Assembly (NCBI RefSeq): GCF_003334305.1
Contig: NZ_QOWS01000014.1
Length of the DNA: 64,000 nucleotides
Origin: Escherichia coli
GTDB lineage: Bacteria; Pseudomonadota; Gammaproteobacteria; Enterobacterales; Enterobacteriaceae
Strand: one strand, 5' to 3'
Part shown: positions 8,327 through 9,115 of the stretch, in pieces
How positions within the stretch are numbered: the stretch's first letter is position 1
Layout: every line of letters begins with the position of its first letter
Notes under the pieces: model-generated
Databases searched by the model: none
Seen by the model: the letters and a program-made list of their open reading frames with translations, nothing else
What the model was told of the DNA's origin: nothing
Program-made: the position numbers and the translations under genes

Positions 8327-9115
8327 TCATAATAATTGCGGCGGCGCAAAGCGACGGTTGTTTAAGACGGGCAGTTGCGCGCGCACCTGACGCACACGTT
8401 CGGGCGTCACTTCCGCCATAATGAGTGCAGGCATTTCTGACGCTGCCGCAATGGTGACGCCAAAGGGATCTATAATCCGGCTTTGACCGATATTTTTGTT
8501 CCCGCACTCCCCCGCCGCCACCATATAACAGGTGGTATCCAGCGCACGAGCGGCAAGCAACGTTGACCAGTGATGCTCTTTGAGCGGCCCGCGAACCCAG
8601 GCGGCAGGAAGTACCAGGATTTCAGCTCCCTGTAATGCCTGTGCCAGCGCCAGCTCTGGAAAGCGTAAGTCATAACAGGTCATCAGACCGACCTTCATCC
8701 CCTCCACCTCGAGTAACGGAGCGATTTCATTACCAGCATCAACACGGCGTGATTCCTGAATGGCAAATGCATCATAGAGATGCAATTTGGCATAACGGGC
8801 GACGATGTTTCCTGCCTGTAGCGCCACCAGCATATTCCATGCGCGCCCCGGCGTTGAAGGAACATGAATCGTCAGAATTGTCGTCATCATGTTACGTTTA
8901 CTTTCTCGCCGTAAACGTCCGAGGAATTCGCCTTCCAGCAGCTGTGCTGATTTAACCGATAGATCTGCATCATGATCATCGCGCGCCAGCAATGCTTCCG
9001 GCAGGACGAACAGCGATACGTCGTTTTCCGCCGCCTGCGCCATCAACGAGGCACAAATCTCAGCGTTCTTTTCCCACACAGATGTAACAGCAAACTGTCC
9101 TGCGGCAACCAGCAT
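8327..9115 (-). CDS. ybeM: C-N hydrolase (nitrilase superfamily) amidase YbeM, apparently intact here
   Basis: Uninterrupted 262-aa frame from ATG 9115 (the ORF track extends 2 codons to a GTG). Candidate Glu/Lys/Cys triad residues are present (…PEALLA…, …RYAKLHLYD…, …[10 protein letters not shown]…). Confidence 0.8.

Follow-up and report, generated by a model that had tools for sequence, protein, structure and literature searches.

Nitrilase-superfamily enzymes of the Nit1 type are known for the hydrolysis of deaminated glutathione. Escherichia coli YbeM itself was reportedly assayed on deaminated glutathione by Peracchi et al. in 2017 (PNAS 114:E3233), in line with the curated names of the protein. 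The function of Nit1 has been covered by two reviews (PMC7041631, PMC5714238), and Nit1 knock-outs in other organisms showed no obvious phenotype (PMC7041631). Two E. coli members of the superfamily, YbeM and YafV, have been entered as NIT1 and NIT2, respectively (PMC8788347). In K-12, the "pseudo gene ybeM" has been used as a neutral insertion site (PMC7242477).

We analyzed the ybeM gene in a stretch of E. coli DNA of 64,000 nucleotides, hereafter referred to as the window. It is very likely that ybeM in the window is an ordinary functional E. coli allele encoding a 262-residue Nit1-type enzyme and that the K-12 lineage lost this enzyme through the deletion of a single base, G200. An intact gene with a curated name, the K-12 pseudogene, and the Nit1-type function are already in public annotation; the sole new information provided here is a rough census of the alleles.

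Reading frame and gene context

The open reading frame (ORF) listing of the window contained a single long ORF at this locus (8327..9121 on the minus strand), which starts with GTG and encodes 264 amino acids. Two codons into this ORF, the ATG at 9115 opens a frame of 262 codons, with the TGA ending at 8327. As the upstream GTG falls within the Shine-Dalgarno sequence AGGAGG, the ATG at 9115 is a sensible start. When translated separately, the 789 nt from ATG to TGA showed no internal stop. In addition, the RefSeq record of strain A7, whose genome was 100% identical to the window over the first 25 kb, carries a CDS at exactly 8327-9115 that is annotated as "deaminated glutathione amidase" (WP_000959109.1). 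The ORF listing, the separate translation, and the RefSeq CDS at the same coordinates thus agree with the original prediction, which had described ybeM as an uninterrupted gene of 262 codons.

The neighbors of ybeM in the A7 record are lipA, tatE, ybeM, crcB, cspE, and pagP in order, i.e., the 14-minute region of E. coli. A consensus scan revealed no convincing sigma-70 promoter for ybeM in the 92-bp spacer between crcB and ybeM, and the promoter and terminator consensus scan of positions 7900-9700 showed nothing relevant to ybeM above shuffled expectation. Just past crcB from ybeM, cspE and its leader matched a regulatory RNA model over its full length, and a leader of rnk was also located in the window. 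The coordinates of all features are listed in Table 1.

Table 1. Positions of ybeM, of its predicted functional sites, and of other features in the window
Feature	Position	Strand	Description	Basis
ybeM CDS	8327..9115	(-)	262 codons + TGA; putative Nit1-type deaminated glutathione amidase, nitrilase superfamily	
Shine-Dalgarno AGGAGG	9121..9126	(-)	5 nt upstream of ATG 9115	read from sequence
Glu40 codon GAA	8996..8998	(-)	predicted catalytic glutamate; aligns with Glu54 of 1ems	phmmer
G200, second base of Arg67 codon CGT	8916	(-)	absent in K-12 MG1655, present in the window	pairwise and multiple alignments, k-mer census
Met76-Met77 ATGATG	8885..8890	(-)	shifted-frame stops TGA TGA of K-12 overlap these ATGs (ACATGATGA)	translation of K-12 allele, alignment
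Lys110 codon AAA	8786..8788	(-)	predicted catalytic lysine; aligns with Lys127 of 1ems	phmmer
Cys147 codon TGT	8675..8677	(-)	predicted catalytic nucleophile; aligns with Cys169 of 1ems	phmmer
cspE with leader	9598-10040	(-)	full-model match to Rfam cspA thermoregulator, 124 bits	
rnk leader	23027-23135	(+)		
entH	37360-37773	(-)	intact ORF, 137 aa	
entE	39393-41003	(-)	intact ORF, 536 aa	
fepB	42563-43519	(+)	intact ORF, 318 aa	
sok antitoxin RNA match	57880-58035	(-)	86 bits	
sok antitoxin RNA match	58383-58539	(-)	86 bits	
nfsB	60792-61445	(+)	oxygen-insensitive nitroreductase	
nfsB codon 44	60921-60923	(+)	premature TAG	

Family assignment and catalytic residues

YbeM contains a full-length Pfam CN_hydrolase domain (PF00795), with residues 3-245 matching positions 2-255 of the 256 in the model (E 9.4e-41). 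The NCBIfam model NF033621 (de_GSH_amidase, "deaminated glutathione amidase") gave 452 bits, exceeding its curated cut-off of 355, and this match spanned residues 3-261 of 262 and profile positions 2-260 of 260. Both matches bear out the earlier description of the product as a C-N hydrolase-family amidase. NF007757 (PRK10438), which models the omega-amidase of the YafV/Nit2 type from E. coli, gave 58.4 bits and thus remained below its curated cut-off of 249; the scores with all remaining NCBIfam models were far under their cut-offs. The scores with NF033621 and NF007757, above and below their respective cut-offs, indicate that deaminated glutathione, not 2-oxoglutaramate, would be the relevant substrate. 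The original prediction had proposed an enzyme assay on 2-oxoglutaramate, for which the family assignment points to deaminated glutathione instead.

Sequence homology linked YbeM to 40 solved members of the superfamily. The Nit1 class was represented by NitFhit of C. elegans (1ems), which gave the best E-value of all (3e-29), and by yeast NIT2 (4h5u, 1e-26). The matches to the Nit2 class, mouse Nit2 (2w1v, 3e-22) and yeast Nit3 (1f89, 5e-20), were weaker. Homology to these solved structures suggests that YbeM adopts the alpha-beta-beta-alpha sandwich fold. By these matches, YbeM belongs to the family of Nit1-type deaminated-glutathione amidases, and its probable substrate is assigned on the same grounds.

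A candidate Glu/Lys/Cys triad had also been proposed, and Glu40, Lys110, and Cys147 were indeed found to align with the triad positions of 1ems. Glu54, Lys127, and Cys169 of 1ems are reportedly the catalytic triad of NitFhit (Pace et al. 2000). The alignment to solved relatives showed that Glu121 of YbeM is conserved as well, in a QES/MES/KES motif. The whole protein was identical (262/262) to WP_000959109.1 of BL21(DE3), and its sequence falls in the UniRef100 cluster represented by YBEM_ECO57. At least 1,000 public contigs encode exactly this sequence, named "Deaminated glutathione amidase ... RepID=YBEM_ECO57".

The lesion in K-12

In NC_000913.3, ybeM is the pseudogene b4581, located in the tag order b0624 (crcB), b4581 (ybeM), b0627 (tatE), and a RefSeq record of MG1655 labels the CDS "frameshifted". 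The K-12 locus lies at positions 2501-3288 of the K-12 sequence used for comparison. The alignment showed that ybeM has 788 nt in MG1655 compared with 789 nt in the window, with 98.9% DNA identity, 8 substitutions, and one deletion. K-12 reads GGAC-TTTACGG at the site of the deletion, and the window reads GGACGTTTACGG with the G at 8916, indicating that the window does not carry the K-12-type allele. The NC_000913.3 entry, the RefSeq label, and the loss of G200 in the alignment all support the original statement that K-12 MG1655 carries ybeM as a pseudogene with a frameshift. The locus tag b0626 given with it was incorrect; the current tag in NC_000913.3 is b4581, and b0625 and b0626 have been retired. 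The comparison with K-12 and with intact E. coli ybeM, which had been suggested as a check, thus gave a K-12 allele that lacks G200 and a BL21(DE3) protein without a single difference.

The deletion shifts the K-12 frame at codon 67, and translation stops after 75 residues. Glu40 is kept, and Lys110 and Cys147 are missing; since the truncation precedes these two residues, the enzyme is abolished. When G200 was restored in silico, the K-12 allele showed only two non-synonymous changes relative to the window (V33A and V37A), and this small decay suggests that ybeM was lost recently. The older K-12 annotation presumably carried two ORFs at ybeM, and the overlap of the shifted-frame stops with the two ATGs (Table 1) would explain why.

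Distribution of the alleles in E. coli

We used 31/32-mers centered on the G200 site as queries against 5,426 complete E. coli genomes. Because megablast was run with an exact word of 28 bases, any match to a 31/32-mer spans the G200 site. The ybeM gene was present in 5,425 of the 5,426 genomes. G200 was absent, as in K-12, in 860/5,426 genomes (15.8%). The window allele, GGACGT, was found in 3,644/5,426, GGTCGT in 567/5,426, and GGCCGT in 76/5,426; the three alleles with G200 sum to 4,287/5,426 (79%) and about 278/5,426 were unclassified at this base, counts that describe the G200 site alone and leave inactivating mutations elsewhere in ybeM uncounted. As the G is present in at least 79% of the genomes, the intact form is the majority state and is not special to the strain of the window. 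It is presumably also the ancestral state.

Besides the expected K-12 derivatives, many natural isolates carry the deletion; their sources include humans, poultry, pigs, and a pheasant, as well as soil, wastewater, seawater, and river water. Two of the natural carriers were checked by alignment and showed a lesion identical to that in K-12. The G200 deletion therefore represents a polymorphism of a large natural lineage related to K-12 and did not arise as a laboratory artefact. With ybeM a pseudogene in approximately 16% of the complete genomes, the gene is evidently dispensable. Compared with the window, two intact alleles of divergent E. coli showed synonymous and non-synonymous differences at ratios of 16:4 (TUM13773) and 13:3 (DA33135); the predominance of synonymous differences among intact alleles fits purifying selection.

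The single match at 85.7% identity, in strain UTME-9, does not reflect allelic divergence: all genes in this part of the UTME-9 record carry a frameshift annotation, and the error-rich assembly was disregarded. The 788-nt ybeM of O157:H7 strain ECP17-46 does not have the K-12 lesion and has independently lost another base, at nt 49 of the gene (AAAAGAAC to AAAAGAC). This deletion in an A-run was found in that one O157:H7 assembly alone, with the other O157:H7 genomes being intact, and it may be a private mutation or an assembly error.

Proposed function and alternative explanations

As judged from its family and the literature, YbeM would act on a side product of metabolism. Transaminases acting on glutathione generate deaminated glutathione as a side product, the amide carbonyl of which would be attacked by Cys147 as the nucleophile to form a thioester intermediate. 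In this scheme, Glu40 would serve as the base and Lys110 would stabilize the intermediate, and hydrolysis of the thioester would yield 2-oxoglutarate and cysteinylglycine (Cys-Gly). The reaction would accordingly represent metabolite repair or salvage. In a ChIP study of the uropathogenic strain CFT073, an NsrR peak was associated with ybeM at 345 bp from the gene start, and a CFT073 mutant exposed to nitric oxide stress expressed ybeM at an approximately 3-fold lower level (PMC5320621). These data hint at a possible tie between the YbeM amidase and nitrosative stress.

Could the frameshift in K-12 be a sequencing or annotation artefact, K-12 being truly intact? Single-base indels are common assembly errors, with the isolated A-run loss in one O157:H7 assembly as a possible example and the UTME-9 region as another; however, the same G200 deletion occurs in 860 independent complete genomes, among which are natural isolates and the products of many separate resequencing projects on K-12, and the bases at the G200 site (GGACGTTT) do not form a homopolymer run. 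We assign this explanation a practically negligible probability, and the 860 genomes effectively refute it. The frame in the window may instead be open but silent or decaying, in which case its intactness would have no physiological meaning. Such a state would suit a dispensable gene that is a pseudogene in 860/5,426 genomes and for which the consensus scan gave no clear promoter. Nevertheless, we consider it very unlikely because a strong Shine-Dalgarno sequence precedes the ATG at 9115, the substitutions among intact alleles are mostly synonymous, and 1,000 contigs or more share the identical protein. Moreover, the ybeM transcript of CFT073 changes under nitric oxide and the NsrR ChIP peak is associated with the gene, indicating transcription of ybeM in a strain whose copy is intact (PMC5320621).

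An activity mainly of the Nit2 type, i.e., that of an omega-amidase on 2-oxoglutaramate or 2-oxosuccinamate, would be compatible with the superfamily and the triad, which are common to both classes, and with the homology to 2w1v (E 3e-22) and 1f89 (E 5e-20). Nit1-type enzymes are also known to have a weak omega-amidase side activity, and this point likewise favors an omega-amidase. However, YbeM scored 58 bits with NF007757 against a cut-off of 249 and 452 bits with de_GSH_amidase against 355, the Nit1-class structures matched better than those of the Nit2 class, and PMC8788347 assigns YbeM to NIT1 and YafV to NIT2; a main role as an omega-amidase is therefore very unlikely. A different question is whether the K-12-type allele is fully null. 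It might yield two complementing fragments by termination-reinitiation, one of residues 1-75 with Glu40 and the other of residues 76-262 with Lys110 and Cys147, which could join to form a split enzyme of partial activity. The position of TGA TGA over Met76-Met77 resembles the classic termination-reinitiation arrangement, from which reinitiation itself may be conjectured, and the presence of only two non-synonymous changes in the K-12 allele would fit a split enzyme or a recent loss alike. If this were true, the "pseudogene" lineage would retain some amidase activity; we regard it as highly improbable. Loss of the enzyme in K-12 and an ordinary functional Nit1-type allele in the window remain the reading that we prefer.

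Other features of the window

The nfsB gene of the window has a premature TAG at codon 44, which encodes Gln in K-12. The gene is therefore a pseudogene in the window, the reverse of the situation at ybeM. Losing nfsB brings a strain one step closer to nitrofuran resistance. Of the 5,426 complete E. coli genomes, only one was matched by a 32-mer across the TAG, namely that of strain A7, which came from the faeces of an orangutan (NZ_CP028767.1); A7 or a nearly identical strain is thus the probable source of the window. The A7 RefSeq record is otherwise the closest match; unlike the intact ORFs of the window, fepB, entE, and entH are all annotated as frameshifted in it. This discrepancy reflects either indel errors in the A7 assembly or a different assembly or isolate. 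In addition, the window showed two tandem matches to the sok antitoxin RNA, with which two hokE toxin genes annotated in the A7 record pair, indicating that the hokE/sok module is duplicated.

Comparison with known systems

The K-12 reference is the exception at ybeM, and findings made in K-12 are uninformative about the repair of deaminated glutathione in the majority of E. coli. As approximately 16% of the complete genomes carry the G200 deletion, a successful lineage of the species can do without the repair enzyme, in agreement with the absent phenotype of Nit1 knock-outs elsewhere.

BL21(DE3) encodes the same protein as the window (ECD_RS03005, WP_000959109.1 / YBEM_ECO57; 262/262) among the same neighbors, crcB, ybeM, tatE, and lipA. 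With regard to YbeM of other E. coli strains, the window showed no protein difference from the YBEM_ECO57 reference, and some strains differ at synonymous DNA sites only. In K-12, b4581 occupies the same locus with the same neighbors; it differs in the absence of G200 and in 8 SNPs.

The eukaryotic Nit1 class (1ems, 4h5u, and mammalian Nit1) shares the CN_hydrolase domain and the Glu-Lys-Cys triad with YbeM. The curated function of this class is the hydrolysis of deaminated glutathione (PMC7041631, PMC5714238), as it probably is for YbeM by its family. YbeM differs from the eukaryotic proteins in that it is shorter and stand-alone, with neither a Fhit fusion nor a targeting sequence. Its homology to the solved structures is remote, with an E-value of 3e-29 at best and no close relative among them. 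Finally, Nit2 and the YafV omega-amidase are like YbeM in superfamily, fold family, and triad; however, YbeM scores below the cut-off of the YafV-type model NF007757, and the substrate of the Nit2/YafV family is 2-oxoglutaramate, unlike the deaminated glutathione assigned to YbeM.
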